DNA of 26,907 bases from a virus (Duplodnaviria; Heunggongvirae; Uroviricota; Caudoviricetes). The position numbers were made by a program, and so were the translations under genes. Of the stretch, positions 1,963-26,907 are shown in pieces. Position 1 is the first letter of the stretch. Every line of letters begins with the position of its first letter. The notes under the pieces are model-generated. The model was given only the letters and a program-made list of their open reading frames with translations. It made no database searches and was not told where the DNA came from. Location of the stretch: IMG/VR virus record IMGVR_UViG_2778261676_000004. The stretch is one strand, 5' to 3'.

Positions 1963-4401
1963 TTAAAAATCAGCCTGATTCGGGATCAGTTTTTGTATCG
2001 TGGCTGTAACGTATTTCGCCTGGTGACGGGCATCATCCAGCGCATGGTGGCGCACGCCTTCAAATAGAATAACTGTTCTGGCATCGAAGCCGATAGTTTT
2101 TCCCAGTTCAACGATTGTACGTACATCGCGATCGTTGTAGTAACGCCACGGGCAGGGGATGTTCAGGCGTTCGTACGAGGTTCGTAAAATAGTGTTGTCG
2201 AAAGTTGCACCATTGCCCCATACCTGAACGAATTCTTCATCCGAGTACTCATTGATGAATTCCCGAAATTGAATAAGAGCGTCAACCAGTTTTACCTGAT
2301 CAACTAAAATTGCAGATCTGGCTTCGCTGGACTGAGCAAGCCACCATTCGATGGTGGAACCATCAGGAACAGCACCCGTGTCCATAGCGTCAACCAGGCT
2401 GATAACGATATAAAATGTTGGCCCGATTTCCCCGGTCTGCGGATCGAAGAACACAGCACCAATAACCACGATGGGGGCATTACTTTTTTTACCCATCGTT
2501 TCAAGGTCGATCATCAGGTGGTACCACACTCTGCTGGTGGATGTGATAACGTGATGACCGTTCACCGCAATTAAGGGATCTGCCGTCTCGCCAGTTTCGC
2601 TATCGCTGGCGTGGTCCTGATAGCTGCCAGCATTCTCCTTGTGTGGATGTTCAGCGCCTTCCATTTCCTCCGGATCTTTTTCCTGAGATTCATCCAGATT
2701 TTCTTCATTAAAGGTTTCCTGATACGTTGCGTCGCCCATCACCGCACCACAATCAGGGCAGTTGCCGCCGCTGGTCTGACCGCAGGCGGTGCAGGCTTTT
2801 TCCGGCTCCTGTTGCGCATTTGGGCTGTTTTGTTCCGCTTTCTGGTCGTTCTGTTCCGTTTCTTTCTGGTTCTGATTCACTGAATCGCGGGTTTCAATCC
2901 CCTTCACCCATTTCGGATCATTCGGGTCGCTAATCCCTGCAACAAATTCACCACGTGATACAGCAAGCAACTTATTGGCGTCAGGCTGGCTGATATTGGC
3001 TGCCTGCATAATTTTGTTTACTTCGTCAGCGGTAACTTTTACCGGCTCTGGTTGTGCGATCGTGTCAGATGCACCAGTATTTTGTTGTGAACCTGAGTAT
3101 GTGCCGTTTTTGCGGGCAAAATATTCTTCTTTCGTGATTTCAGTAGCCCCTGCAGCCAGCGCCTTATTCAGACCAGAAAGTTTGTTTGCACGACCATATT
3201 TTTCGCCATCCTTATCGGTGAAAAGGAAGTAGAACGGCCCCTCACGCTCTACAGATGGTTCAGTTTCCAGCGTGCTTTCATTTTTTTGGGTATCAGATAC
3301 TTCAGTTTCCACTGCATCAGTTTGTGCTGCTGACGGCTGGAGAATATCAGCAGTGTTCTGGTCTGTTTCTTCATCCTCAAACACGCCCTTTGTCGCCAGG
3401 TATTCAGTGATGTATTTGTTCAGTGCCACGGGATCTTTGTGAATGTCGATCGGACGCTCACGGACAAGGCCAAAAATAGTCTGACGGTCGTAGCGGACGG
3501 CATCGGGTTGTTTGCGCATTGATGCGGAAATGCGCTTCCAGTCTTCGCGATCTTTGTCGATAACTTCATTTTTTGCCCAGCGATGGATGCTGCCGTCAAT
3601 GTTTCCGGCATTAATATCGCCAGGCCACAGAGCGTAGGCCAGTTCTTCATCCAGCGTTTTCCATGTCTGCTTGTATTCGCGACGAATGGCGGCAGTGGCG
3701 GGGTTGATTTTTCCTGCTGAGTTTTCAGTGTGCTGCCGGTTGACTCTGGCGCGGGCAAGATCAACAACAGACGTGTATTTCCCGGTTTCTTTGCGTTCGG
3801 CTTCGCGACGTTTTTTCCAGGTGCGTAATTCTGTCTGGATCTCAGGCCATTTTGCACCCGGCTTACATTTATGTTTAACCCACCCGATGGCGAACAGCTT
3901 TAGTTCTGAATACATGACGTTAACTTCAGGCATTTTCATCAATGCCTCAACGATATGCCCGTCGAATGTTGCCATGTCCTCCTGCAACAATTCCTGTGCA
4001 CTAATCACCATATCAACGGTGATGTTTTCACATGTACCGAACTTAACCAGGACCGCGTTCTGTACTTCAAGGGACAGCTTGTCAAAATTGACGTTCATCG
4101 GATCGGATTCTGGTTCGATCGGGACAAAAGAGGCTGACTCTTCATCCCAGCGGTTTTCCAGCATATATTCGGTATCCCAGGAGTCGATGGCAGGGCGGGG
4201 CATGCCGGGTTTATCCTCGCAAACAAGAAATTTATAAGCGCAGTCCTGAGCAGCCGGATATTGCTCCAGGAATTGCCAGGTAAATTTGGCACGGGCGCGG
4301 CGTTCGTCGCCGGCTTCAATGGCAGTGGCTACAGCGACTGCACCTTCTTCCTTTATTGCCTGTTCGTCCGGAATGGCGGCGCAAATAAAGACTTTACTCA
4401 T
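1963..4401 (-). CDS. Large prophage exonuclease with C-terminal DEDDh (DnaQ-like) 3'-5' exonuclease domain
   Basis: 812 aa; C-terminal motifs MIDLETMG, WGNGATFDN and HHALDDA match the DEDDh exonuclease pattern; central CTACGQTSGGNCPDCG is a C-x2-C...C-x2-C zinc-ribbon-like motif; acidic low-complexity linker. Confidence 0.8.
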   Translation of the reverse strand: MSKVFICAAIPDEQAIKEEGAVAVATAIEAGDERRARAKFTWQFLEQYPAAQDCAYKFLVCEDKPGMPRPAIDSWDTEYMLENRWDEESASFVPIEPESDPMNVNFDKLSLEVQNAVLVKFGTCENITVDMVISAQELLQEDMATFDGHIVEALMKMPEVNVMYSELKLFAIGWVKHKCKPGAKWPEIQTELRTWKKRREAERKETGKYTSVVDLARARVNRQHTENSAGKINPATAAIRREYKQTWKTLDEELAYALWPGDINAGNIDGSIHRWAKNEVIDKDREDWKRISASMRKQPDAVRYDRQTIFGLVRERPIDIHKDPVALNKYITEYLATKGVFEDEETDQNTADILQPSAAQTDAVETEVSDTQKNESTLETEPSVEREGPFYFLFTDKDGEKYGRANKLSGLNKALAAGATEITKEEYFARKNGTYSGSQQNTGASDTIAQPEPVKVTADEVNKIMQAANISQPDANKLLAVSRGEFVAGISDPNDPKWVKGIETRDSVNQNQKETEQNDQKAEQNSPNAQQEPEKACTACGQTSGGNCPDCGAVMGDATYQETFNEENLDESQEKDPEEMEGAEHPHKENAGSYQDHASDSETGETADPLIAVNGHHVITSTSRVWYHLMIDLETMGKKSNAPIVVIGAVFFDPQTGEIGPTFYIVISLVDAMDTGAVPDGSTIEWWLAQSSEARSAILVDQVKLVDALIQFREFINEYSDEEFVQVWGNGATFDNTILRTSYERLNIPCPWRYYNDRDVRTIVELGKTIGFDARTVILFEGVRHHALDDARHQAKYVTATIQKLIPNQADF

Positions 4402-4481
4402 TTTGTTTTAACCTCATTACAGATTTAAGGGTGAACAAATCCCTGCCATTGCTGGCATATAAAAATGAAACCGGATATTAA

Positions 4482-8906: not shown

Positions 8907-9329
8907 GTGGCAAAAGTTTTTACACAAGAAGAGCGGGAAAAAATTAAAGGACAGGTTGTTGAACTCGTACGCCAGAGTGGGCGTGAGACGTTACGGCAAC
9001 TGGAAGTCAAGACAGGTGCGACAAGATATCTGATGAGCGTTCTCGCAAGAGAGCTGGTTGCCAGCGGCGATGTATACAACTCTGGTTACGGGTTATTCCC
9101 GTCTGAACAGGCGCGTAAGGACTGGCAAAATGCCCGTAAAAAGCTCTCAAGGGCAAAGCTGAAGAAACCATCTGCGGTTGATCCGGACCTTATCTGGTCA
9201 TTACCTGACGGAGAAATACGTCGCTACGACAGGCGTCAGAACATAATCTGTCGCGAGTGCCGGAAGAGTGAAGTTATGCAGCGCATATTGTCGTTTTATC
9301 AGGGTGATGTTCGGTATTTATTGAAGTGA
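8907..9329 (+). CDS. Hypothetical protein following the O-like gene (GTG start)
   Basis: 140-aa ORF; GTG start with GGAGG upstream; basic and Cys-containing C-terminus (CRECRK); occupies the position where a P/DnaC-like helicase loader would normally lie. Confidence 0.55.
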   Translation: MAKVFTQEEREKIKGQVVELVRQSGRETLRQLEVKTGATRYLMSVLARELVASGDVYNSGYGLFPSEQARKDWQNARKKLSRAKLKKPSAVDPDLIWSLPDGEIRRYDRRQNIICRECRKSEVMQRILSFYQGDVRYLLK

Positions 9330-9530
9330 CGAGATTAAAGTGCATTAGTTCAGATGCAAATTGACATTTTGTGGCACAGGGTAGAGCTAGCGTGGTTGTC
9401 CGCTTTGTGCCAGGAGCGGACGTCTAGTTCGCTGAACCACAAAAAGTCGTTTCTAGTTATATTACTGGCTCATTAGTATCTTTATGCGATAATATTTCAT
9501 ACAACCAAAATTATGATGAAGGGAGTTCAA

Positions 9531-10652
9531 ATGGCAATTACGGTCTATTCTCGTACATTCAAAAAGGAATTGGACATGGTTCAATTGTTAAACCATTACT
9601 CATCAGATAACGCACTCAATTTCAGTGATTTCAAGGAATTTGTTGCCTTTGATGCAGAGTGCCCAATTTGCAATGTAAGCGGTGCGATTGTTGTTTCAGA
9701 AGGTTATTCGAAAAGAACAAATAAGATAGTCAGCCAATCTCATTTTTCGTTTAGAACAAAAGACGGAACTGATGCACACAAAGTATTTTGCGATCATTAC
9801 AGTGGTAATGATAAGCAAATAGATTCATCAAGGGATGGTTTTATAAAATTCGGCACCTCAGGTTCTGAGATTACAAGTATAATTCGCGAGCTTGTATGTA
9901 GAGGTATTGAACATGATGAGTTCAATCAGGAAGATATTCGAAACATGCGGCAATGGTTTACAGAATTACGCCAGTCAGGCACTTTTTCTGTTAACTATAG
10001 CCCTCACATGATCAATCTAATAAGGGCCAGCATGTATTCCCGTAAGGGAGAAAGTAAATATATTGTAGATGAAGAGAGGAAAAATAAATCCTGGTTTGAT
10101 ATAAACGATGAAGTGTATCGTTCGTTAAGATTCAAATATCCATCATTGATGATCGACATGACTAATGAAAATAATTCTGTTTTCTATAATCTTGTGAATA
10201 GTACCACATTTACTAAACAAGCACATCGATTAGTAGCACGAGATCGAGGTTATCAGGTTTATGATAGAAGGTTGCTTAAAGAAAAATATGAAGCAACGAT
10301 AAGAGTTGCACAAAAAATAACCAGGCATCACGAATTTCTTTTTAGGAAAATCAGGGGTATATCCGCTGTTAAAAAAAATAACCCCCTTTTGGCTGTATCT
10401 GCCTTGCTTCTTTTTGTCTCGGACTGGAATGAAACAACTGCAATCAACAAATTCATCAAATTGTGTGGTGTAGGGAAATCTAAAAATAATGATGAGGGGA
10501 ATGTAATTGGCTTAAATCCCTTTATTCATTACGATGTCTGGAATGTTATTCATCAACTTAAGGATTTAATGGTTACACTTCCAGACTTCTCAAATCTTGA
10601 TGAAGAATTTGACAGAGAAAAATCCAGATTAATTGAACTTTATAAGCTCTAA
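9531..10652 (+). CDS. Hypothetical protein, cargo gene A (no family recognised)
   Basis: 373 aa from ATG 9531 with AAGGGAG 5 nt upstream; strongly AT-rich coding sequence against a roughly balanced phage backbone; possible metal-binding motifs ECPICN and HKVFCDHY; no Walker A or nuclease motif seen. Confidence 0.8.
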   Translation: MAITVYSRTFKKELDMVQLLNHYSSDNALNFSDFKEFVAFDAECPICNVSGAIVVSEGYSKRTNKIVSQSHFSFRTKDGTDAHKVFCDHYSGNDKQIDSSRDGFIKFGTSGSEITSIIRELVCRGIEHDEFNQEDIRNMRQWFTELRQSGTFSVNYSPHMINLIRASMYSRKGESKYIVDEERKNKSWFDINDEVYRSLRFKYPSLMIDMTNENNSVFYNLVNSTTFTKQAHRLVARDRGYQVYDRRLLKEKYEATIRVAQKITRHHEFLFRKIRGISAVKKNNPLLAVSALLLFVSDWNETTAINKFIKLCGVGKSKNNDEGNVIGLNPFIHYDVWNVIHQLKDLMVTLPDFSNLDEEFDREKSRLIELYKL

Positions 10653-12519: not shown

Positions 12520-13152
12520 TTTATTTGCAATTAAGCCATGCTTTTTAGGTGGCTTATTTTTTTTGAATCTACTACTTATATTGATATTAGCAATGTAATT
12601 GCTAAAGTATTCCTAGCCCACTATTCATCTAAATATGGTTGTCGAAAGGCCCGCTTCTCGCTCAAAGCGGACTAGAAGGTTAGCTTGCGTCGGACTTGGC
12701 GTATTTAAAGAAGTGCTGGTGGTGACTGGTTGTTGTGTTCCATTTCTACAGAACAAAATCACAGAAACTATACCCAATAGTTGTATCTCATCAATGATGA
12801 GACAGCCTCATATTTATCAGGACTGGTGTACGTCCAATACAGGAGGTTGTCGTGCTGGTTCTCAAATGTGCGCTGGCTATTGCAGCTGTAATGGCAATTT
12901 ATTGTCTTGCTGTTGTTCTTATGGATCGCCTTTCTGATTGATTTTATATTGGCGAGGTAACGGGAGTTAAGTAGAATGGCTGCGGGTGCTTGAGGCTATC
13001 TGTCTCAGGCATGAACACCAAAGGCAGATAGAGAAAAGCCCCAGTTAACATTACGCGTCCTGCAAGACGCTTAACATTAATCTGAGGCTCAATCTATGAA
13101 CGGCAAATCTAGGTTAGCCTCTTACGTGCCGAAAGGCAAGGAGAAGCAGGCT

Positions 13153-13308
13153 ATGAAGCAGCAAAAGGCGATGTTAATCGCCCTGATCGTCATCTGTTTA
13201 ACCGTCATAGTGACGGCACTGGTAACGAGGAAAGACCTCTGCGAGGTACGAATCCGAACCGGCCAGACGGAGGTTGCTGTCTTCGTGGACTACGAATCTG
13301 AGAAGTAA
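13153..13308 (+). CDS. Hok/Gef-family membrane toxin (type I toxin-antitoxin)
   Basis: 51 aa MKQQKAMLIALIVICLTVIVTALVTRKDLCEVRIRTGQTEVAVFVDYESEK, very close to my recollection of Gef/HokC; RBS AAGGAGAAG; in-frame upstream extension from 13096; 9-bp stem-loop GGCGGGAGA/TCTCCCGCC at 13318-13339 and a T8 run at 13391-13398 downstream. Confidence 0.8.
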   Translation: MKQQKAMLIALIVICLTVIVTALVTRKDLCEVRIRTGQTEVAVFVDYESEK

Positions 13309-14705: not shown

Positions 14706-14733
14706 AAACCCGCTTCGGCGGGTTTTTTGTTTT
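14706..14733 (+). terminator. Rho-independent terminator with TTCG tetraloop
   Basis: AAACCCGC TTCG GCGGGTTT followed by TTTTGTTTT. Confidence 0.75.
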
Positions 14734-14803
14734 ACGTATTCTGGTTTACAATCCACAGGCCAGCCTGAACAACTGGCACCTGCTGCGCCAGCAGAGACAA
14801 CCG

Positions 14804-15082
14804 ATGGCGCACGATACCAAATTACACAATTCTAATGATTCTGCTGTCTTTGCCAGCAGGTGCGGACGGCGTTTTCACGCATTCAAATCAGACTGGTTCC
14901 AGCATCCTCCATGCACTGAAGAGCAGGCTGAATGGATAATTCAGTGTTACCGCAGGCGTGGATACGAGGTTAAGAAAGCTCTTAGTCTCGACTATCGTCA
15001 CTGGATAATCTCAGTCAGACTCCCTTACTCCGAACGCCCACCGCGTCCGTCCCGCACATTCCAGCAACGGATCTGGAGGTAA
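14804..15082 (+). CDS. Hypothetical nin-region protein
   Basis: 92-aa ORF; stop at 15080-15082 directly before the GTG start of the next gene; weak RBS. Confidence 0.55.
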   Translation: MAHDTKLHNSNDSAVFASRCGRRFHAFKSDWFQHPPCTEEQAEWIIQCYRRRGYEVKKALSLDYRHWIISVRLPYSERPPRPSRTFQQRIWR

Positions 15083-15083
15083 C

Positions 15084-16133
15084 GTGCGGGTATTAGTGAC
15101 TCCTGAAATTGCTCACCGTCTGGGGATTGTACTTTTCAGGCCCGGTCCTGATGCGATGCCTTTGTTTATGCAGGGGCGTGTGCTGGTGGAGCCTGAACCG
15201 AAAAGCATGCGCAATCTGCCGCCCGGTGTCGTTCCTGCCGTTCGCCAGCCGCTGGCGGAAGATAAATCATTACTGCCATTTTTCAGCGATGAGCGGGTGA
15301 TTCGTGCTGCTGGTGGCACTGGTGCACTGTCTGACTGGCTGTTACGCCACGTTAAATCCTGCCAGTGGCCTCATGGAGACTATCACCATAGTGAAACCGT
15401 CATACATCGTTACGGTACCGGCGCAATGGTGTTGTGCTGGCACTGTGACAACCAGCTGCGTGACCAGACCTCCGAATCACTCGGGCAGCTTGCTCAACAA
15501 AATCTGACAGCCTGGATGATTGACGTCATACGTCACGCAATAAGCGGTACACAGGAGCGGGAATTATCGCTGGCTGAATTATCCTGGTGGGCGGTCTGTA
15601 ATCAGGTAGCGGACGCACTACCGGAGGTAGTATTACGTCGTTCTCTGGGGTTACGTGCGGAAAAAATCCGCTCTGTGTACCGCGAGAGCGACATCGTACC
15701 GGGAGAGCAGACAGCCACCAGCATACTGAAGCAGCGCACAAAAAATTTTGCGTCGTTGCCTCGCGCCCACCAGCAACCGAACCCACCACAGGAAAAGACG
15801 GTTGTAAGTATCACAGTTGATCCGGAGTCACCGGAATCTTTCATGAAGCGGCCTAAACGTCGTCGCTGGGTGAATGAGAAATACACGCGCTGGGTAAAAA
15901 CACAGCCGTGTACGTGTTGTGGTAAGCCAGCAGACGATCCCCATCACCTGATTGGTCACGGTCAGGGCGGAATGGGGACAAAAGCCCACGATATTTTTAC
16001 GTTGCCGCTGTGCCGGGAACATCACAACGAACTTCATGCAGATCCGCAGGCGTTCGAAGAAAAGCATGGTTCTCAGGTTGATTTAATTTTTCGTTTTCTT
16101 GATCACGCCTTTGCAACAGGCGTACTCGGATAA
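15084..16133 (+). CDS. DUF968-like prophage protein with C-terminal HNH-like Cys/His motif
   Basis: 349 aa; GTG start with GGAGG RBS; C-terminal CTCCGKPADDPHHLIGHGQGGMGTKAHDIFTLPLCREHHNELH resembles an HNH/zinc-finger nuclease signature; overall like YdfU-type proteins of E. coli prophages (recalled). Confidence 0.75.
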   Translation: MRVLVTPEIAHRLGIVLFRPGPDAMPLFMQGRVLVEPEPKSMRNLPPGVVPAVRQPLAEDKSLLPFFSDERVIRAAGGTGALSDWLLRHVKSCQWPHGDYHHSETVIHRYGTGAMVLCWHCDNQLRDQTSESLGQLAQQNLTAWMIDVIRHAISGTQERELSLAELSWWAVCNQVADALPEVVLRRSLGLRAEKIRSVYRESDIVPGEQTATSILKQRTKNFASLPRAHQQPNPPQEKTVVSITVDPESPESFMKRPKRRRWVNEKYTRWVKTQPCTCCGKPADDPHHLIGHGQGGMGTKAHDIFTLPLCREHHNELHADPQAFEEKHGSQVDLIFRFLDHAFATGVLG

Positions 16134-16145
16134 AAGAGGTTACTG

Positions 16146-16517
16146 ATGGGGATAGAATTTGTTTTGCCTTACCCGCCAACGGTGAACACCTACTGGCGAC
16201 GTCGTGGCAGCACATATTTTGTATCAAAAGCCGGTGAGCGTTATCGCCGTGATGTGGCGCTTATTGTTCGCCAGCAGCGACTGAAATTAAACCTGTCCGG
16301 AAGGCTGGCAATAAAAATTATTGCAGAGCCACCGGATAAGCGCCGCCGCGACCTGGACAATATCCTGAAGGCACCACTGGATGCGCTGACGCATGCCGGA
16401 CTACTTATAGACGACGAGCAGTTTGATGAAATCAATATTGTGCGCGGACTGCCTGTTCCTGGTGGGCGGTTGGGCGTGAAGATTTACGAAATTACAGGTG
16501 ATAACGATGGTGCGTGA
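16146..16517 (+). CDS. rusA: RusA-family Holliday junction resolvase
   Basis: 123 aa; [21 protein letters not shown] ... [26 protein letters not shown] is the RusA signature as I recall it; RBS AAGAGG. Confidence 0.9.
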
Positions 16518-16893
16518 TATTCAGCAGGTTATGGAGCGGTGGGGAGCATGGGCTGCGAACAATCACGAAGATGTGTCATGGGCGTCAATCGCTGCTGGTT
16601 TTAAAGGATTAATCCCGCCGAAAGTGAAATCACGCCCTCAGTGTTCTGATGATGATGCAATGATAATTTGTGGCTGTATGGCCCGGTTGAACAAGAAAAA
16701 TCAGGATTTGCACGATTTGTTGGTGGATTATTACGTAGGTGGAATGACTTTTATGGGGTTGGCACGAAAGCATGGGTGTTCGGATACCTGTATTGGCAAG
16801 CGCCTGCAGAAAGCGGAAGGGGTTATTGATGGCATGTTGATGATGCTTGATATCCGACTGGAGATGGACAGATACGTAGAACGAATCATGTAG
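16507..16893 (+). CDS. Late-gene antiterminator Q (QuuD-like)
   Basis: [36 protein letters not shown]...[14 protein letters not shown] closely matches my recollection of E. coli DLP12 QuuD; overlaps the rusA 3' end by 11 nt. Confidence 0.85.
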
Positions 16894-16897
16894 GAGC

Positions 16898-16927
16898 TTG
16901 ACCAGACACATTGTCCGGGGCTATATT
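16898..16927 (+). promoter_or_regulatory. Candidate late promoter (PR'-like) just downstream of Q
   Basis: TTGACC (16898-16903), 18-bp spacer, TATATT (16922-16927); followed by a structured leader and a hairpin terminator. Confidence 0.35.
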
Positions 16928-16987
16928 CCTCACGCGCCAGCAAAATCTGGCGTCGGGATTGGCGTCCCGGATGAAAAAGGCGACAAC

Positions 16988-17010
16988 AGACGCGCCAGCG
17001 TCTTTTTTAT
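16988..17010 (+). terminator. Leader terminator (tR'-like) downstream of the candidate late promoter
   Basis: AGACGC GCCA GCGTCT followed by TTTTTTAT. Confidence 0.55.
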
Positions 17011-17166
17011 TGTCGTTTGCACTGTCACATCTCAATGGTGGGCTGTGTGGGGGCGGAGCGATCCGCGCCGGTTCCTTTTTCCCGGTTACGCCAACCCTGC
17101 ACAGTTCACCACCATACTGATTGGCGTCAGCAGTGGTGATGATTCACATAGAAAAAGGATCATCCT

Positions 17167-17655
17167 ATGGCTATTCAAATCTCAGTTGAAACTCTTTCCC
17201 CGATCACCCATAACCAAATCCCTGTCATTACTACCGAGCTTTTGGCACAACTTTATGGCACCGAAACTAATAACATCAAAGTGAACTATACACGCAATGC
17301 CGAGCGTTTTGTTTGTGGGAAACACTACTTCAAATTGGAAGGGGCTGAGTTGCGGGAATTTAAGAACAAGGTTACTCAAAGTAACTTAGTTGCACCGCGT
17401 ACAAAGCACCTCATCCTCTGGACAGAACGCGGAGCAGCCCGTCACGCCAAAATGCTGGAAACCGATCAGGCGTGGGAAGTGTTCGAAAAACTGGAAGACT
17501 GTTATTTCAGCCAAAAACAACCACCAGCAGCACAAAACACCCCAACCCAAAATGATGGATGCGCATTACTGATCCACTTCGATAAACACGGTCAGGTCGA
17601 CTTCACGGAAAAACTACCCGCCGATGCGATGGTATGCACTCTGGAACGGTTTTAA
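17167..17655 (+). CDS. ORF6N-domain protein (antirepressor-like cargo)
   Basis: 162 aa; VITTELLAQLYGTETNNIKVNYTRNAERFVCGKHYFKLEGAELREFK fits the ORF6N pattern as recalled. Confidence 0.75.
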   Translation: MAIQISVETLSPITHNQIPVITTELLAQLYGTETNNIKVNYTRNAERFVCGKHYFKLEGAELREFKNKVTQSNLVAPRTKHLILWTERGAARHAKMLETDQAWEVFEKLEDCYFSQKQPPAAQNTPTQNDGCALLIHFDKHGQVDFTEKLPADAMVCTLERF

Positions 17656-17730
17656 AAATTTTCCCCGAACGCTTTACGATCGTAAAAAGTTGAATATCCT
17701 GTTAAGAGTGGTTACTACGCCAAACAGCTT

Positions 17731-17757
17731 AAACCCGCCACTGAGCGGGTTTTTTAT
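17731..17757 (+). terminator. Rho-independent terminator
   Basis: AAACCCGC CACTGA GCGGGTTT followed by TTTTTAT. Confidence 0.75.
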
Positions 17758-17877
17758 GCCTGAAAAACGGTACAGGACGTTAAACGCGCTGGTGGTTGCG
17801 AATACTGGTCTTTCGGCTTGTATTTTTGTAAATCGATATATACTTATCTTGTGACCAGTAATGTCAGGGCAATTGAT

Positions 17878-18621
17878 ATGAATGAAGCTTGTTCTGTTGT
17901 TTTTGTTCATTCCCCGTTTGTTGTGCTCTTTGAAGGAAAAGAGCTCTCTCTGGAAAGTGGTAGTGCACTTCTTGTCAGGGGGGGAGCTGGATCGTTATTG
18001 CCCTTTTCGGAATGTTTTCGGCGAATAAGTCTCAGTGAATCGACAATTATCCGTTACCTGTTGTGTGGAGACGAAAAACAGGATGTAGTTTTAGTCCGGC
18101 AAATACCACGATATCTTTGCGTGAGTTTTCCCAAGGCAGAATTGATGGGCATCCTGATTGATTATCTTTGTGAGGAAAAGATTCATACGGACAATTTAGC
18201 GGAAATGCTTTCCTTTTCGTGTCTGGCGTTTTTCTCATCAGAGAAAATGTTTTCGTCGTTTCTGACCGCGTGTATTGGCAATATTAGTGACAGGCTTAGT
18301 GCATTGTTTCGTACGGACATTGCAGCAAACTGGACTCTGAGAGATGTGTCTTCGCGGTTATGTATCAGTGAAAGTTTGTTAAAAAAAAGACTGAAAGAAG
18401 AAGGCACCTGTTTCAGTGAGTTGTTGCTTACAGAGAGAATGAGAATGGCAGCAATGCTGTTGAATCAATCTCGTTGCGCCATCAACAGAATCGCTGCTCA
18501 GTGTGGCTATAATTTTACATCTTATTTTATCAGCGTATTCAGGAGTTATTTTGGTGTTACACCGGCAGGTTACAGGATGGCTGCATTCAATGAGATGAGT
18601 TTAAGTGTTACTCAAGAATAA
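17878..18621 (+). CDS. AraC-family transcriptional regulator (prophage cargo)
   Basis: C-terminal AraC-type HTH WTLRDVSSRLCISESLLKKRLKEEG ... CGYNFTSYFISVFRSYFGVTPAGYR; AT-rich gene; start assigned to the first ATG (17878), the track ORF opens at an upstream TTG. Confidence 0.75.
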   Translation: MNEACSVVFVHSPFVVLFEGKELSLESGSALLVRGGAGSLLPFSECFRRISLSESTIIRYLLCGDEKQDVVLVRQIPRYLCVSFPKAELMGILIDYLCEEKIHTDNLAEMLSFSCLAFFSSEKMFSSFLTACIGNISDRLSALFRTDIAANWTLRDVSSRLCISESLLKKRLKEEGTCFSELLLTERMRMAAMLLNQSRCAINRIAAQCGYNFTSYFISVFRSYFGVTPAGYRMAAFNEMSLSVTQE

Positions 18622-18762
18622 TTGAATTTTGCACTCATTGAAAACAGGCTCGCTGCGGCGGGCCTTTTTTATATCCGCGCCACGTCCGGCGCACATCACA
18701 TCAGATAACACCACACAAAAGGTATCTGCGGGTGCCTTTGACGGGGTGTTGTTTTTTTACGG

Positions 18763-18790
18763 GCCGACAGTGGCCCTTTTTTATTTACAG
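18763..18790 (+). terminator. Hairpin with T-run upstream of the lysis genes
   Basis: GGGCC GACAGT GGCCC followed by TTTTTTATTT. Confidence 0.5.
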
Positions 18791-18800
18791 GAGAAAAAGT

Positions 18801-19193
18801 ATGTCTGAACCCTTATCCGGTTCCGGCACGGCTGCGGCGCTCGGCGGGGCGACGGTATTCGGGCTGTTTACCGGAACGGATTTCGGGATTGTGTTTGGCG
18901 CATTTGCCGGGGCGCTGTTTGTGGCCACAATGCCGCAGGCACTATCTGCCTGGCGTGTGGCAGCGCATTTTCTGGTGTCGTTTATCGTTGGCGTGCTGGG
19001 TGCGCATGTGCTGTCAGCCTGGATTGCATCAAAAACAGGTTATGACGGTACATCGGCGGATGCACTGTGTGCGGTGCTGGTGGCGGTGGTGTCGGTGAAG
19101 ATTCTCTCGTTCATCCACCAGCAGGATATTGCATCGCTGGTGTCTGGCCTGTTCTCCCGCCTGCGGGGTGGAGGAGGCGGCAATGTTAAGTAA
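18801..19193 (+). CDS. Holin-like multi-pass membrane protein
   Basis: ATG 18801 with AGGAG RBS; several Gly/Ala-rich hydrophobic segments; first gene of a three-gene cassette ending in an endolysin. Confidence 0.65.
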   Translation: MSEPLSGSGTAAALGGATVFGLFTGTDFGIVFGAFAGALFVATMPQALSAWRVAAHFLVSFIVGVLGAHVLSAWIASKTGYDGTSADALCAVLVAVVSVKILSFIHQQDIASLVSGLFSRLRGGGGGNVK

Positions 19194-19461
19194 CCTTCCC
19201 GGATTGCTGAATGTGGCGTTATGCACGGTTATCGTGCTGACGCTCTTTTTTTATCGTCGTCGTGATTCCAGACATAAACCGCTGATGTCATGGCTGGCCT
19301 GGTTGCTGATGCTGCTGTATGCCTTTGCGCCCCTCAGCTATCTGTGTGGTCGCCCGTTAGCAACGGGCTGGCTGGAAGTGTTTTTTAACCTGCTGTTCTG
19401 CGTGCTGGTGGTTCGTGCTCGTGGGAACGTTTCAAAAATCTTTGTATTACGAAGGCGCTGA
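19183..19461 (+). CDS. Second lysis-cassette membrane protein (holin/antiholin-like)
   Basis: ATG 19183 with GGAGG RBS, overlapping the end of the previous gene; hydrophobic segments LLNVALCTVIVLTLFFY and LAWLLMLLYAFAPL; basic C-terminus. Confidence 0.55.
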   Translation: MLSNLPGLLNVALCTVIVLTLFFYRRRDSRHKPLMSWLAWLLMLLYAFAPLSYLCGRPLATGWLEVFFNLLFCVLVVRARGNVSKIFVLRRR

Positions 19462-19462
19462 G

Positions 19463-20008
19463 ATGAAGTCGAAAGATGAAATTTTTGATGCTGTTCTTGG
19501 CAAAGAGGGCGGCTACGTCAACCACCCTGATGATAAAGGTGGTCCGACTAAATGGGGCATTACTGGAAAAGTTGCCCGTGCACACGGTTATCAGGGGGAT
19601 ATTCGTGACCTGACGCGTGGGCAGGCCCTCGAAATTCTTGAAGCGGACTACTGGTACGGGCCACGTTTTCACAAGGTTGCGAGCCTGTCTCCGGAGATCG
19701 CTGCTGAATTGTGTGATACCGGCGTAAACATGGGGCCGTCAGTGGCATCCAGAATGCTTCAGCGCTGGCTTAATGTATTTAACCAGAAAGGAGAGTTGTA
19801 TCCGGACATTGATGCAGATGGTTGTATCGGCCCACGTACCATTAATGCGTTACGCGCCTATTTGTCAAAACGTGGCAGGGATGGTGAGTTGGTGATTCTG
19901 ACAGCGCTAAACTGTACGCAGGGAGATCGCTACCTTGAACTGGCAGAAAAACGTGAGGCTAATGAATCGTTCGTGTATGGCTGGATGAAAGAGCGCGTGG
20001 TGGTGTAG
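19463..20008 (+). CDS. Endolysin, GH108-type lysozyme with C-terminal peptidoglycan-binding domain
   Basis: MKSKDEIFDAVLGKEGGYVNHPDDKGGPTKWGIT matches the GH108 N-terminal signature as recalled. Confidence 0.8.
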   Translation: MKSKDEIFDAVLGKEGGYVNHPDDKGGPTKWGITGKVARAHGYQGDIRDLTRGQALEILEADYWYGPRFHKVASLSPEIAAELCDTGVNMGPSVASRMLQRWLNVFNQKGELYPDIDADGCIGPRTINALRAYLSKRGRDGELVILTALNCTQGDRYLELAEKREANESFVYGWMKERVVV

Positions 20009-20325
20009 TTGGCATTAATGAGGCCAGTAAATCCAACCTGCGGTTAGCTTGTTATTAGACTTACCGAACAAGAAAAACGACTGGAGAAAGAGTTCGGTTT
20101 TTATACCAAACAAAGAGGAGAATATGAATCAGTGAGTACAGAGAAAAATCCTCGGCAGATCGTATAAATCTTCTTTTAAAGCCGTCCGTTATGAAAGGAA
20201 TAGAAAAGAAAGTAACTGCACGTCTTTATGTGACACGGTCTGCTTTTGCTATTTTTCTTTTGGAGGTTGTTATTTGCGCATCAAGTGCAGATAGAGTTGC
20301 CCATCGAGATGGGCAACTTATGATA

Positions 20326-20619
20326 TTATTGTGAGCAATATACCCGAGCTTCCAGCGGAGTATAAATGCCGAAAGTGATAAAACCGAGCAATCCATTTAC
20401 GAATGTTTGCTGGGTTTCAGTCTTAACAACTTTTTCTGCGCCACCACAAATTTTGGCTGCATCGACAGTTTTCTTCTGACCAATTCCAGAAACGAAGAAA
20501 TGATGAGTGATGGTTTCCTTCGGTGTTACTGTTGTCGGTTGGTTTTCAACAGTAAACGTCTGTTGAGCACATCCAGAGATAAGCAGGGCCAGCGTGAAAG
20601 TGAGTAGCGTTTTTTTCAT
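20326..20619 (-). CDS. bor: Bor/Iss-family outer-membrane lipoprotein
   Basis: 97 aa; MKKTLLTFTLALLISGCAQQTFTV ... ARVYCSQ nearly identical to my recollection of lambda Bor; lipobox LISGC; palindrome GTTGCCCATCGAGATGGGCAAC (20297-20318) just 3' of the stop. Confidence 0.9.
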   Translation of the reverse strand: MKKTLLTFTLALLISGCAQQTFTVENQPTTVTPKETITHHFFVSGIGQKKTVDAAKICGGAEKVVKTETQQTFVNGLLGFITFGIYTPLEARVYCSQ

Positions 20620-20843
20620 AGTGTTATTCCCGTTGTGTTTTTAAGGTTGTTGAATCGTATTTGTAGAAATTTAAACAAAACCTAAACAATGAGTTGAAAT
20701 CTCATATTTTTAATGTTTATTAAAGTATGCCAGATGTGCTGTATTTTCATTGTATTCCCGGATTAACTATGTCCTCAGTACCGACTGGTAACTCCTGTGT
20801 GGGAGTGCCGGATAGTGAGGGGGATTAAACCGGGCGATATGGT

Positions 20844-21254
20844 TTAGCGTGGAAAAAATTGTGTCGTGTTCTGAATGCTTTCGGTAAACAATAATGAGTT
20901 GTCAAAGGTATAGTAATACCTTTTGTGTTCATGGACATTTGTAACCCATCGGAAAACTCCAGCCTTAGCCAGATTTTCCCTGTATTCATGAAATGTGATT
21001 TCTCTTGATTTCAACTTATGAGAGTAAGTTTCTATAAGTCGCGTGTCTCTGCGAAATTTAACATTCACAACCTCCTCAAGTCCTTTTATTAACACTGCGT
21101 TATCATTTTTCAATACAACGTGAATATTACCTGTGGCTAAATAGTAAATGTAATGTGAGACATTGTGACGTTTTAGTTCAGAGTAAAATCGGTCACAGTT
21201 TAAATCTTTCCGCACTTGATCAAATATTTCTTTAAAAAGGGCAACCTGAGCCAT
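20844..21254 (-). CDS. YbcV-like (DUF1398-type) prophage protein
   Basis: 136 aa, the size I recall for DLP12 YbcV; lies between bor and the former packaging region as in lambdoid genomes. Confidence 0.65.
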
Positions 21255-21369
21255 CAGTATAACCTTGTATATGATATGGGGTGCGTAGTCTGCATGAGAG
21301 CTTTTAATACTGCAATCTGGTCAGATGTCTTTATCCTGTGTGGATGATAATTGATCTTACCCAGCAATA

Positions 21370-23256
21370 GTGGACACGCGGCTATGCGATGCCCGCCGGG
21401 CGTTACATGAACTGATGATCGGACGTGCTGTGGTTTCCGTCAGCAAGGACGGGCGTCAGGTTCAGTATTCGCGGGCGACAATTGGTGAACTGCGTCAGTA
21501 TATTGAAGAGCTGGAAAGTGCGCTGGGTGTATGGGGGCTGAAGCTGCCGACGCTGCGCCAGCGACTGTTCCGCTGCGTGAGTATCCGTGAGAACGACGAC
21601 GGCACGTATGCCATCACCGCCGTGCAGCATGTGCCGGAAAAAGAGGCCATCGTGGATAACGGGGCGCACTTTGACGGCGAACAGAGTGGCACGGTGAATG
21701 GTGTCACGCCGCCAGCGGTGCAGCACCTGACCGCAGAAGTCACTGCAGACAGCGGGGAATATCAGGTGCTGGCGCGATGGGACACACCGAAGGTGGTGAA
21801 GGGCGTGAGCTTCCTGCTCCGTCTGACCGTAACAGCGGACGACGGCAGTGAGCGGCTGGTCAGCACGGCCCGGACGACGGAAACCACATACCGCTTCACG
21901 CAACTGGCGCTGGGGAACTACAGGCTGACAGTCCGGGCGGTAAATGCGTGGGGGCAGCAGGGCGATCCGGCGTCGGTATCGTTCCGGATTGCCGCACCGG
22001 CAGCACCGTCGAGGATTGAGCTGACGCCGGGCTATTTTCAGATAACCGCCACGCCGCATCTTGCCGTTTATGACCCGACGGTACAGTTTGAGTTCTGGTT
22101 CTCGGAAAAGCAGATTGCGGATATCAGACAGGTTGAAACCAGCGCGCGTTATCTTGGTACGGCGCTGTACTGGATAGCCGCCAGTATCAATATCAAACCG
22201 GGCCATGATTATTACTTTTATATCCGCAGTGTGAACACCGTTGGCAAATCGGCATTCGTGGAGGCCGTCGGTCGGGCGAGCGATGATGCGGAAGGTTACC
22301 TGGATTTTTTCAAAGGCAAGATAACCGAATCCCATCTCGGCAAGGAGCTGCTGGAAAAAGTCGAGCTGACGGAGGATAACGCCAGCAGACTGGAGGAGTT
22401 TTCGAAAGAGTGGAAGGACGCCAACGATAAGTGGAATGCCATGTGGGCTGTCAAAATTGAGCAGACCAAAGACGGCAAACATTATGTCGCGGGTATTGGC
22501 CTCAGCATGGAGGACACGGAGGAAGGCAAACTGAGCCAGTTTCTGGTTGCCGCCAATCGTATCGCGTTTATTGACCCGGCAAACGGGAATGAAACGCCGA
22601 TGTTTGTGGCGCAGGGCAACCAGATATTCATGAACGACGTGTTCCTGAAGCGCCTGACGGCCCCCACCATTACCAGCGGCGGCAATCCTCCGGCCTTTTC
22701 CCTGACACCGGACGGAAAGCTGACCGCTAAAAATGCGGATATCAGTGGCAGTGTGAATGCGAACTCCGGGACGCTCAGTAATGTGACGATAGCTGAAAAC
22801 TGTACGATAAACGGTACGCTGAGGGCGGAAAAAATCGTCGGGGACATTGTAAAGGCGGCGAGCGCGGCTTTTCCGCGCCAGCGTGAAAGCAGTGTGGACT
22901 GGCCGTCAGGTACCCGTACTGTCACCGTGACCGATGACCATCCTTTTGATCGCCAGATAGTGGTGCTTCCGCTGACGTTTCGCGGAAGTAAGCGTACTGT
23001 CAGCGGCAGGACAACGTATTCGATGTGTTATCTGAAAGTACTGATGAACGGTGCGGTGATTTATGATGGCGCGGCGAACGAGGCGGTACAGGTGTTCTCC
23101 CGTATTGTTGACATGCCAGCGGGTCGGGGAAACGTGATCCTGACGTTCACGCTTACGTCCACACGGCATTCGGCAGATATTCCGCCGGATACGTTTGCCA
23201 GCGATGTGCAGGTTATGGTGATTAAGAAACAGGCGCTGGGCATCAGCGTGGTCTGA
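21370..23256 (+). pseudogene. Deletion remnant: gpW-like N-terminus fused in frame to the C-terminal part of tail tip protein J
   Basis: First ~55 residues ([42 protein letters not shown]) resemble lambda gpW; the remainder matches the lambda J C-terminus ending ...[10 protein letters not shown] as recalled; ORF opens at GTG right after an in-frame TAG; no terminase, portal, capsid or tail genes anywhere in the window. Confidence 0.65.
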
Positions 23257-26326: not shown

Positions 26327-26907
26327 TGGCATTCAGAATGAGTGAACAACCACGGACCATAAAAATTTATAATCTGCTGGCCGGAACTAATGAATTTATT
26401 GGTGAAGGTGACGCATATATTCCGCCTCATACCGGTCTGCCTGCAAACAGTACCGATATTGCACCGCCAGATATTCCGGCTGGCTTTGTGGCTGTTTTCA
26501 ACAGTGATGAGGCATCGTGGCATCTCGTTGAAGACCATCGGGGTAAAACCGTCTATGACGTGGCTTCCGGCGACGCGTTATTTATTTCTGAACTCGGTCC
26601 GTTACCGGAAAATTTTACCTGGTTATCGCCGGGAGGGGAATATCAGAAGTGGAACGGCACAGCCTGGGTGAAGGATACGGAAGCAGAAAAACTGTTCCGG
26701 ATCCGGGAGGCGGAAGAAACAAAAAACAACCTGATGCAGGTAGCCAGTGAGCATATTGCGCCGCTTCAGGATGCTGCAGATCTGGAAATTGCAACGGAGG
26801 AAGAAACCTCGTTGCTGGAAGCCTGGAAGAAGTATCGGGTATTGCTGAACCGTGTTGATACATCAACTGCACCTGATATTGAGTGGCCGACTTCACCTGC
26901 AGAGTAA
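26326..26907 (+). CDS. tfa: Tail fibre assembly protein Tfa
   Basis: [54 protein letters not shown] matches lambda Tfa as recalled; start overlaps the stf stop (ATAATGG); stop at 26905-26907. Confidence 0.9.

Follow-up and report, generated by a model that had tools for sequence, protein, structure and literature searches.

An IsrK/C4-type antirepressor cassette between the Q gene and a 933W-type late promoter homolog, and an AraC-family regulator gene downstream of it, in a lambdoid prophage of Escherichia coli

The sequence analysed here, hereafter the window, is the 26,907-nucleotide (nt) record IMGVR_UViG_2778261676_000004 of IMG/VR, which is a lambdoid prophage of Escherichia coli, and the present work concerns the interval between the gene of its antiterminator Q and its lysis genes. 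We consider it likely that this interval consists of three units: an antirepressor switch resembling the immI region of bacteriophages P1 and P7, a 933W-type late promoter (pR') cognate to Q, and a portable cassette encoding an AraC-family regulator. On comparative grounds, the first of these units, which is formed by an IsrK-like small RNA (sRNA), a C4-type antisense RNA and the gene of an ORF6N-domain antirepressor (ant), is placed as an insertion between Q and its pR', and this placement is newly demonstrated here. Each of the components is a member of an already described family; what is new is the reassignment of the late promoter and the presence of a YdeO/PatE-like clade of regulators in the slot of the stx toxin genes. 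The elements from Q to pR' are listed below (aa, amino acids; ORF, open reading frame).

16510-16893, + strand: gene of the Q antiterminator (Q21/933W family), 127 aa (PF06530, E=6.3e-53)
16898-16927, + strand: promoter P_isrK, with -35 TTGACC at 16898-16903, an 18-nt spacer and -10 TATATT at 16922-16927 (consensus scan and conservation)
16934-17010, + strand: IsrK-like sRNA (Rfam RF01394), with an intrinsic terminator hairpin and T-tract at 16988-17010
17031-17116, + strand: C4-type antisense RNA, equivalent of STnc1160 (Rfam RF01695)
17035-17139, + strand: small ORF of 34 aa overlapping the C4 RNA, positional equivalent of Gifsy-1 orf45
17073-17081 and 17088-17094, + strand: C4 specificity elements in the predicted fold, loop a' (UCCUUUUUC) and linker b' (ACGCCAA), respectively
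17121-17159, + strand: targets in the antirepressor leader, b2 (UUGGCGU, 17121-17127) and a2 (GAAAAAGGA, 17151-17159), exact complements of b' and a'
17167-17655, + strand: gene of the ORF6N-domain antirepressor (AnrP/Ant type), 162 aa (PF10543, E=1.2e-21)
17673-17757, + strand: 933W-type pR', with -35 TTTACG at 17673-17678, a 16-nt spacer, -10 TATCCT at 17695-17700 and an inferred start at about 17707

The Pfam domain of Q is complete (1-118 of 118), and the protein is 82-85% identical (aa) to its Stx-phage counterparts, among them those of VT2-Sakai and BP-4795, and distantly related to Q21 (PDB 6p18/6jnx, E=2.6e-7). Compared with the Stx-phage Q, it is shorter by 19 residues at the C terminus; the coding end of the Stx-phage protein, according to the comparison with the Sakai sequence, overlaps the -35 of pR'. 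Judged from this comparison, the insertion of the cassette would have exchanged the last 19 codons of a Stx-type Q gene for two. In phi24B and in Sakai Sp5, too, the -35 of pR' is found where the Q gene ends or overlapping this end. Alignment of the pR' region of phi24B and Sakai to the window gave no match at 16898-17010, directly after Q. By contrast, positions 17673-17755, beyond ant, showed 81% identity over 83 nt to the pR' of the Sakai Stx2a phage and also aligned to the pR', qut and terminator annotated in phi24B. This homolog includes a conserved AAGAGTGGTTAC region, and it ends with a first hairpin followed by a U-tract (17731-17757; 8-bp stem, -13 kcal/mol), which was missed by the consensus scan and recovered by folding, the stem taking in three T of the T-tract. 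The first-pass annotation of the window, made from sequence alone, had described a strong terminator after the ORF6N gene; the hairpin indeed exists, and is reassigned here as the first hairpin of a 933W-type pR'. Experimental mapping is available for the start of the Sakai pR' as well as for the StxS transcript of 258 nt (Sy et al., 2020; PMC7547250). The Sakai coordinates were transferred by means of the terminator position, which places the start 7 nt after TATCAT and its window equivalent at about 17707. A homolog of StxS was also considered and rejected, as the window retains no more than pR' and the first hairpin, which amounts to about 50 nt at the start of the 258-nt StxS region; the 74-nt StxS and tR' are absent.

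The position of this motif was then compared across IMG/VR loci, which were counted when this type of Q was detected upstream and at least 400 nt were present downstream of the matched ORF6N segment. The pR'/qut motif followed the ORF6N gene in 27 of the 27 such loci, 790-890 nt beyond the -10 of the IsrK promoter, despite their differing cassette alleles. The other locus with this Q type (L016) ends 114 nt after the matched ORF6N segment and is outside the 27. In phi24B, an IsrK/C4/ant cassette with the same promoter is located between ninE and roi, in the nin region, 1.5 kb upstream of Q. Because the motif follows the antirepressor in all these loci and the phi24B cassette sits elsewhere, the cassette is regarded as inserted between Q and pR', and homology assigns the Q-cognate late promoter to 17673-17757, downstream of the ORF6N gene. 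The window shares with 933W, Sp5 and Sp15 (PMC7547250) the Q protein at the identity given above, the promoter, initially transcribed region and first hairpin at 81%, and accessory genes ahead of the holin. Unlike in those phages, pR' stands 0.78 kb from Q, with the antirepressor cassette in between.

The first-pass annotation had listed the TTGACC-18-TATATT promoter, the hairpin at 16988-17010, the ORF6N gene, the later terminator, a low-G+C AraC gene and the lysis genes, and all of them are present where it had located them. It had taken the first two for a candidate late promoter of Q and its leader terminator, an assignment that could not be maintained: they have no similarity to pR', and comparison with relatives identifies them as the promoter and terminator of an IsrK-type sRNA, found also in the nin region of phi24B. 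Since the phi24B cassette precedes Q and the phi24B Q has a pR' of its own, P_isrK is not regarded as a Q-specific late promoter. The promoter matches 10 of the 12 consensus positions. For the comparison, 80 IMG/VR loci encoding ORF6N-domain relatives were fetched, which gave 46 distinct upstream regions, and TTGACN-N17/18-TATA[T/G]T was kept in 42 of the 46 despite a variable spacer. Likewise, the -35 TTGAC and the -10 GGGGCTATATTCC were invariant, and the spacer variable, when the window was aligned with Gifsy-1, phi24B and E. coli CFSAN029787. The IsrK model RF01394 scored 79.4 bits (gathering 50) at 16934-17008, over model positions 1-77 of 77, and the c4-a1b1 model RF03163 scored 52.2 bits (gathering 46.7) at 16921-16973. 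The -10 hexamer ends at 16927, 7 nt ahead of IsrK model position 1 (16934), so that the RNA has its own sigma-70 promoter, placed for a start at the first model position, and a Rho-independent terminator. Promoters and terminators were scanned by consensus and compared with chance expectation. This yielded one promoter-like site (3.0 +/- 1.9 expected) and six terminator-like sites (3.7 +/- 1.8 expected), and such matches by themselves are not above chance. P_isrK and the IsrK terminator are taken as real because they are conserved among relatives and match the Rfam IsrK family, and not on account of the scan counts.

The C4 model RF01695 scored 74 bits (gathering 45), and the predicted fold of this RNA (minimum free energy of -43.5 kcal/mol) leaves loop a' and linker b' unpaired. 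Exact complements of a' extend over 8 nt in IsrK (GAAAAAGG, 16973-16980) and 9 nt in the ORF6N leader, and those of b' over 7 nt both in IsrK (UUGGCGU, 16959-16965) and in the leader. In the latter, a2 covers the Shine-Dalgarno sequence of the ORF6N gene. When the target segments were shuffled, both matches were attained in 1/20000 shuffles for IsrK and in 1/20000 for the leader. The predicted element has, as is characteristic of the C4 family, two unpaired elements complementary to one pair of sites upstream and another downstream, the downstream pair overlapping a ribosome-binding site, and the sRNA at 16934-17010 would be the equivalent of the a1/b1 target element of C4.

A recognisable C4 was present in 40 of the distinct upstream regions. 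These 40 sequences carry 14 a' loops and 9 b' linkers in 19 combinations, and in 40/40 the b' linker has an exact complement of 7-8 nt at both IsrK and the leader. The mean length of the complement was 6.6-7.5 nt with cognate targets vs 4.3-4.9 nt with non-cognate ones, i.e., targets of a different specificity. Across the window, Gifsy-1, phi24B and CFSAN029787, the loop, the linker and both pairs of targets change together. This three-way covariation rule, linking IsrK, C4 and leader, is new here. Parts of the cassette are present in about 1500 of 5426 E. coli genomes. The small ORF that overlaps C4 was also considered as a conserved peptide, and this was rejected, since its length in relatives is anywhere between 8 and 48 aa and its end point shifts from a position 102 nt ahead of the ant ATG to one that overlaps this codon; it is probably not a conserved protein. 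In the window it ends 28 nt ahead of the antirepressor start codon, and therefore a translational coupling as in Gifsy-1 appears unlikely here.

The ORF6N protein matched the 'anti-repressor' family phrog_2379 with E=2.6e-78 (profile positions 1-163 of 187), and is 58% identical to AnrP of Gifsy-1 and 97% identical to a 186-aa allele of CFSAN029787. Its N-terminal ORF6N domain is complete. With respect to the CFSAN029787 allele there is a 67-bp deletion, whose flanking aligned pieces overlap by 5 bases (17647-17651), and the protein ends at CTLERF. It is without the last 24 conserved residues, which are present in both the 186-aa allele and AnrP, and its C-terminal region is incomplete. The truncated allele, identical over the matched N-terminal 125 residues, was found in 10 IMG/VR loci. 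The first-pass annotation had considered both the ORF6N and AraC genes as cargo of the late operon. Because the ORF6N gene is located upstream of pR' and encodes a homolog of an antirepressor, it is better read as part of the induction circuitry of the phage than as cargo in the stx sense. The claim holds for the AraC gene, which is accessory and the first gene after the 933W-type pR'.

The closest parallel to this cassette is the antQ-isrK-orf45-anrP region of Gifsy-1, where the isrK promoter, active in a lacZ fusion, drives the transcription of anrP and not its translation, where IsrK supplied in trans increases anrP translation 139-fold, and where AnrP induces the prophage and increases the level of antQ mRNA (Hershko-Shalev et al., 2016; PMC4825925). 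It is only for the IsrK of Gifsy-1 that binding to Hfq and activation of antirepressor translation in trans are known (PMC4825925). The two regions have the same order: Q, P_isrK, IsrK with its terminator, a C4-like RNA, an ORF6N antirepressor, and a second promoter with a short terminated RNA. In both, IsrK and C4 score above the Rfam gathering threshold, the -35 and -10 of P_isrK are conserved, and the antirepressors are related as stated above. The Rfam C4 match in Gifsy-1 falls at STnc1160, which in Salmonella is a stable processed RNA, and the authors of the Gifsy-1 study noted a resemblance to SeqA/CI of P4 (PMC4825925). The b1:b' pairing seems to have its counterpart in helix b-I of Gifsy-1, which is formed by G28/G31 with C162/C159. 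There are also differences. Gifsy-1 has a Q of the 82 type, whereas that of the window belongs to PF06530 (Q21/933W type); its a' loop is CGGUGAU instead of UCCUUUUUC; its small ORF has 45 aa and overlaps the start of anrP, whereas the 34-aa ORF of the window is not coupled to ant; and its antirepressor is not truncated. Moreover, the downstream promoter is that of IsrJ instead of a 933W-type pR', and it is followed by a tRNA gene and gogA instead of the AraC gene.

Some observations on IsrJ were made in the course of this comparison. In the Gifsy-1 locus (L006) it extends over 4328-4434 and begins 33 nt past the stop codon of anrP, preceded by TTGCAA-17-TATATT. In Klebsiella, Enterobacter and Escherichia phages, the IsrJ promoter together with the 5' portion of the RNA is found again where 82-type Q genes end, with lysis genes following; one such IsrJ-like unit is at 2001-2089 of locus L095. 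The Klebsiella Q is 60% identical to that of Gifsy-1. IsrJ therefore has the appearance of a short leader transcript from the pR' of the Gifsy-1 late operon and, read in this way, the Gifsy-1 antirepressor cassette would also stand between Q and pR'.

The other system of reference is immI. In P1 and P7 this region comprises the c4 antisense RNA, its a1/b1 and a2/b2 targets and icd-ant, and the specificity of heteroimmunity resides in two short elements. A similar logic is apparent in the window, where a single transcript would carry upstream copies of the targets, the antisense RNA, and downstream targets over a ribosome-binding site ahead of an antirepressor; as in P1 and P7, two short unpaired elements, different from phage to phage, would determine the specificity. 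Unlike in those phages, there is no icd and hence no icd-ant coupling, the target being the antirepressor's own Shine-Dalgarno sequence; an intrinsic terminator follows a1/b1, predicting a free decoy sRNA (IsrK); and the carrier of the cassette is a lambdoid prophage.

The mechanism that we propose for the switch (16898-17655) is as follows. A constitutive P_isrK would yield a short terminated sRNA, IsrK, and the transcripts that read through its terminator would carry the C4-type antisense RNA together with the antirepressor mRNA. Pairing of a' and b' with a2 and b2 in the leader would cover the Shine-Dalgarno sequence and block translation of the antirepressor. We infer that IsrK, with its near-identical copies of the targets, acts as a target mimic, a decoy titrating the C4 determinants away from the antirepressor leader and so switching on its translation, which agrees with the Gifsy-1 data. 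Q, encoded upstream, would load at 17673-17757 and not at P_isrK. The AraC gene, as the first one past pR', would be co-transcribed with the late operon upon induction; in the lysogen it could be reached by transcripts that pass the single hairpin, or be served by a weak promoter within the cassette.

The following elements lie downstream of pR'.

17821-18698, + strand: low-G+C AraC moron cassette of about 0.8 kb, with boundaries taken from loci with and without the gene (core 17821-18640)
17878-18621, + strand: AraC-family coding sequence, 247 aa (PF12833, HTH_18; PF00165, HTH_AraC)
18646-18672 and 18761-18783, + strand: two intrinsic terminators between the AraC gene and the holin gene (consensus scan)
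18801-19193, + strand: holin (PF16931)
19183-19461, + strand: second holin (PF05449)
19463-20008, + strand: GH108 endolysin (PF05838 with PF09374)

The lysis genes (18801-20008) are the downstream boundary of the cargo slot. From its position relative to the pR' homolog, the AraC gene is placed as the first gene after pR', i.e., in the stx slot, which upholds the earlier suggestion that it occupies the site where Stx-type phages carry their toxin genes. Stx phages have tRNA genes and stx there; neither the Q-to-lysis interval nor the rest of the window contains any tRNA gene. The AraC gene has a G+C content of 41-45% vs 46-60% for the adjacent Q and holin regions, and the regions of the two terminators behind it fold with -16.8 kcal/mol (18640-18680) and -14.0 kcal/mol (18730-18790). 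Its distribution is patchy: of 5426 complete E. coli genomes, 65 contain segment 17821-18640, 35 of them with at least 99% identity and 23 with 90-95%, and among the records listed the latter group consists mainly of porcine enterotoxigenic E. coli and edema-disease strains. CFSAN029787 shares the flank up to 17820 and has other genes thereafter, and otherwise near-identical late regions, such as that of locus L002, have no counterpart of the gene. With its patchy presence, deviant base composition and terminators of its own, the cassette is a moron. In all the loci examined the gene lies between the Q gene and the holin, in three different Q/neighbour contexts: that of the window, shared by UTAK-5; that of STEC308, with a 274-aa antiterminator, the AraC gene and a methyltransferase; and that of an O139:H1 strain, in which it follows two reverse-strand genes. 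About 956 bp of DNA methyltransferase DNA, found in STEC308 between the AraC gene and the holin, are absent from the window (junction 18698-18705). Relatives of the protein with 31-40% identity occur in several coliphages, of which Lambda_ev066 was examined for context, and its relative (37% identity) is in the same slot, just upstream of the holin.

The best NCBIfam match of the AraC protein is YdeO (NF007407), over the full length and with 146.9 bits vs a cutoff of 348, which points to a relative of YdeO and not an ortholog. The first-pass annotation had proposed a homology search for this protein; this confirmed its membership of the YdeO/GadW/AppY/PatE group. In end-to-end alignments it is 37% identical to YdeO, 39% to ECs0287 of Sakai Sp1 and 30% to AppY; GadW was also aligned. 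The N-terminal motif MxxxCSV is common to it and its relatives of the YdeO group. ECs0287, from its position in Sp1/OI-8 and as the only AraC-like gene in Sakai Sp1, is probably PatE (Z0321). The likeness of the window protein to YdeO, GadW, GadX, AppY and PatE comprises the same length, alignment over the full length, and a prophage-borne, low-G+C gene; PsrA and PsrB are likened by description (PMC10877973). However, it forms a separate clade, and PatE and AppY are found at the right end of their prophages instead of between Q and the holin. This clade is small, with no more than 8 clusters reaching E<=1e-30 in a search of 1.84 billion representatives, and no relative beyond it has over 42% identity to the protein. 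The closest solved relatives are GadX, Rns, CsvR and ToxT. The AlphaFold model has a mean predicted local distance difference test (pLDDT) score of 64.9, with residues 71-133 below 50 and a poor N-terminal domain; its DNA-binding domain aligns to that of GadX (3mkl) with a TM-score of 0.91-0.93. The fold search supports the Rns/ToxT/GadX class only, and no inference on a ligand is drawn from it.

PatE and PsrB activate gadE/hdeA, PsrA and PsrB raise the expression of GadE, and PatE, PsrA and PsrB all repress type III secretion or genes of the locus of enterocyte effacement (reviewed in PMC10877973). Because of its homology to regulators of the YdeO/PatE type, and from homology only, the AraC protein most likely binds AT-rich promoters of the host of the acid-resistance or virulence type. 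Regarding its expression, TTGTAT-15-TATACT (17818-17844) is the best candidate promoter located by eye, and the 60 nt upstream of the gene are conserved in three cassette variants. In lysogens, pR', which is constitutively active, may leak into the AraC gene, given that read-through of the corresponding hairpin occurs in Sakai, where the mapped primary transcript ends at +258 (PMC7547250).

Several observations weigh against parts of the proposed arrangement, and they are considered here together with the alternatives. In the case of the late promoter, the -10 of the pR' homolog (TATCCT) is weaker than the TATCAT of Stx phages, and the window differs from phi24B in the annotated qut octamer. 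The reading of the first-pass annotation, in which TTGACC-18-TATATT is a Q-dependent late promoter, 16988-17010 its leader terminator and both ORF6N and AraC genes its late cargo, could find support in that P_isrK starts 5 nt past the Q stop codon, where pR' would be expected, that its Gifsy-1 counterpart is also directly after the Q gene, and that the sequence of the -35/-10 spacer tracks the type of Q and not the cassette allele. Nevertheless, we consider it highly improbable. The same promoter, sRNA and terminator are upstream of Q in phi24B, the spacer shows no similarity to the cognate 933W-type pR', which has a clear homolog further on, and the cassette follows two unrelated families of Q, the PF06530 type in the window and the 82 type in Gifsy-1. 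In addition, the position after anrP in Gifsy-1 also holds a promoter with a short RNA (IsrJ), a unit that abuts 82-type Q genes elsewhere. As regards the switch, the authors of the Gifsy-1 study invoke alternative cis structures and orf45 translation, and not a free C4 antisense RNA, and co-expression of STnc1160 failed to relieve the toxicity of IsrK (PMC4825925). It is thus conceivable, though somewhat unlikely in our opinion, that the C4-like segment acts only in cis within a long IsrK-ant mRNA whose structures are opened by IsrK, and that ant translation needs the small ORF. Mutational and native-gel data for structures A and B and for the dependence on orf45 were obtained in Gifsy-1 (PMC4825925), and the mutated G28/G31 of IsrK and their partners C162/C159 seem to fall in b1 and b'. 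However, neither the length nor the end of the small ORF is conserved, and its stop, 28 nt before the ant ATG in the window, makes a general coupling unlikely; the a' loop is complementary to the ant Shine-Dalgarno sequence itself; a stable processed STnc1160 was reported in Salmonella (PMC4825925); and the score of the element is that of a complete C4 RNA. Action in cis and action in trans are in any case compatible with each other.

Two further alternatives concern what is functional in this interval. The truncated antirepressor, annotated by the Prokaryotic Genome Annotation Pipeline (PGAP) as a pseudogene with 'missing C-terminus', may be inactive in this prophage and the switch vestigial. 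That the switch is in decay in this prophage, leaving the AraC gene and the lysis cassette as the only parts of importance, is a possibility to be taken seriously, although we hold it to be doubtful. The deletion of the conserved C-terminal 24 residues is in its favor, as are insertions of IS3 and ISEc20 in closely related prophages of other genomes, suggesting decay. Against it, the promoter, IsrK and C4 are intact, as are the four target sites, which match perfectly, the N-terminal ORF6N domain is conserved and complete, and the truncated allele is not unique to the window, the region being 99.8-100% identical in 12 complete genomes. With regard to the AraC protein, its targets are not considered confidently transferable from relatives, given its score far below the YdeO cutoff and its low identity to any protein outside its clade, and the scan of 17758-17877 found no canonical sigma-70 promoter for the gene. 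The lack of an independent canonical promoter, together with the position upstream of the holin and within the late operon in all contexts examined, would fit a protein that serves the phage rather than the host, tuning late or lysis expression or taking part in the lysogeny decision. This seems quite improbable to us: the gene is confined to those 65 genomes and missing from near-identical late regions, as in a moron, its G+C content is lower than in the neighbouring regions and terminators of its own follow it, and its nearest named relatives (YdeO, GadW, AppY and PatE) act on acid-resistance and related regulons of the host. The division into antirepressor switch, 933W-type pR' and portable AraC cassette is thus the reading that we prefer.

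With respect to the remaining parts of the window, the Pfam gene order is DUF968, RusA, Q (PF06530), ORF6N protein, AraC-family protein, two holins and GH108 endolysin, followed by Bor and DUF1398 encoded on the opposite strand. The 2.3 kb around the Q-to-lysis interval were found with 99.8-100% identity in 12 complete chromosomes, mostly of cattle or farm origin. In one genome with an identical region, ARS-C101, the prophage is Qin/Kim-like, has a DicA/DicC/DicB immunity region and is integrated beside potABCD-cobB; in this prophage (window equivalents about 1-2700 and 9000-10400) a copy of IS3 lies between the DUF1398 gene and the terminase genes. The prophage of E. coli 1303 and the window differ outside 14708-21384. 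A match to the sok antitoxin RNA (Rfam, 110 bits) at 12984-13158 indicates a hok/sok type I toxin-antitoxin locus upstream of DUF968-RusA-Q, and related genomes have hokD annotated in the corresponding position. Finally, a full-length match to IS009 (Rfam, 225 bits) was detected at 26669-26867, close to the right end of the window.

A more extended hypothesis, which we regard as unlikely at present, is that the cassettes form a combinatorial RNA address system based on a'/b' pairs, with their placement between Q and pR' in two unrelated Q systems, the 933W type of the window and the 82 type of Gifsy-1, giving a feed-forward induction and the AraC gene expressed through the leaky pR' hairpin. 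If it were true, free IsrK would derepress only antirepressors with a matching C4 pair, and the induction of co-resident lambdoid prophages could be linked or insulated. The antirepressor mRNA would be a read-through product of early-right transcription, acting as a feed-forward at induction, and the AraC regulator would be supplied from an always-active pR' by way of a single leaky hairpin.

All these results indicate that a promoter and a terminator immediately after Q need not be pR' and tR', as the late promoter assigned here is 0.78 kb further, and such a reassignment changes which genes count as cargo controlled by Q. The covariation of IsrK, C4 and leader provides a compact and testable rule of specificity for a widespread antirepressor switch. 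Finally, the YdeO/PatE-like clade, found mainly in bovine, farm and porcine E. coli, offers a candidate through which prophages may influence acid resistance or colonisation in livestock-associated strains.

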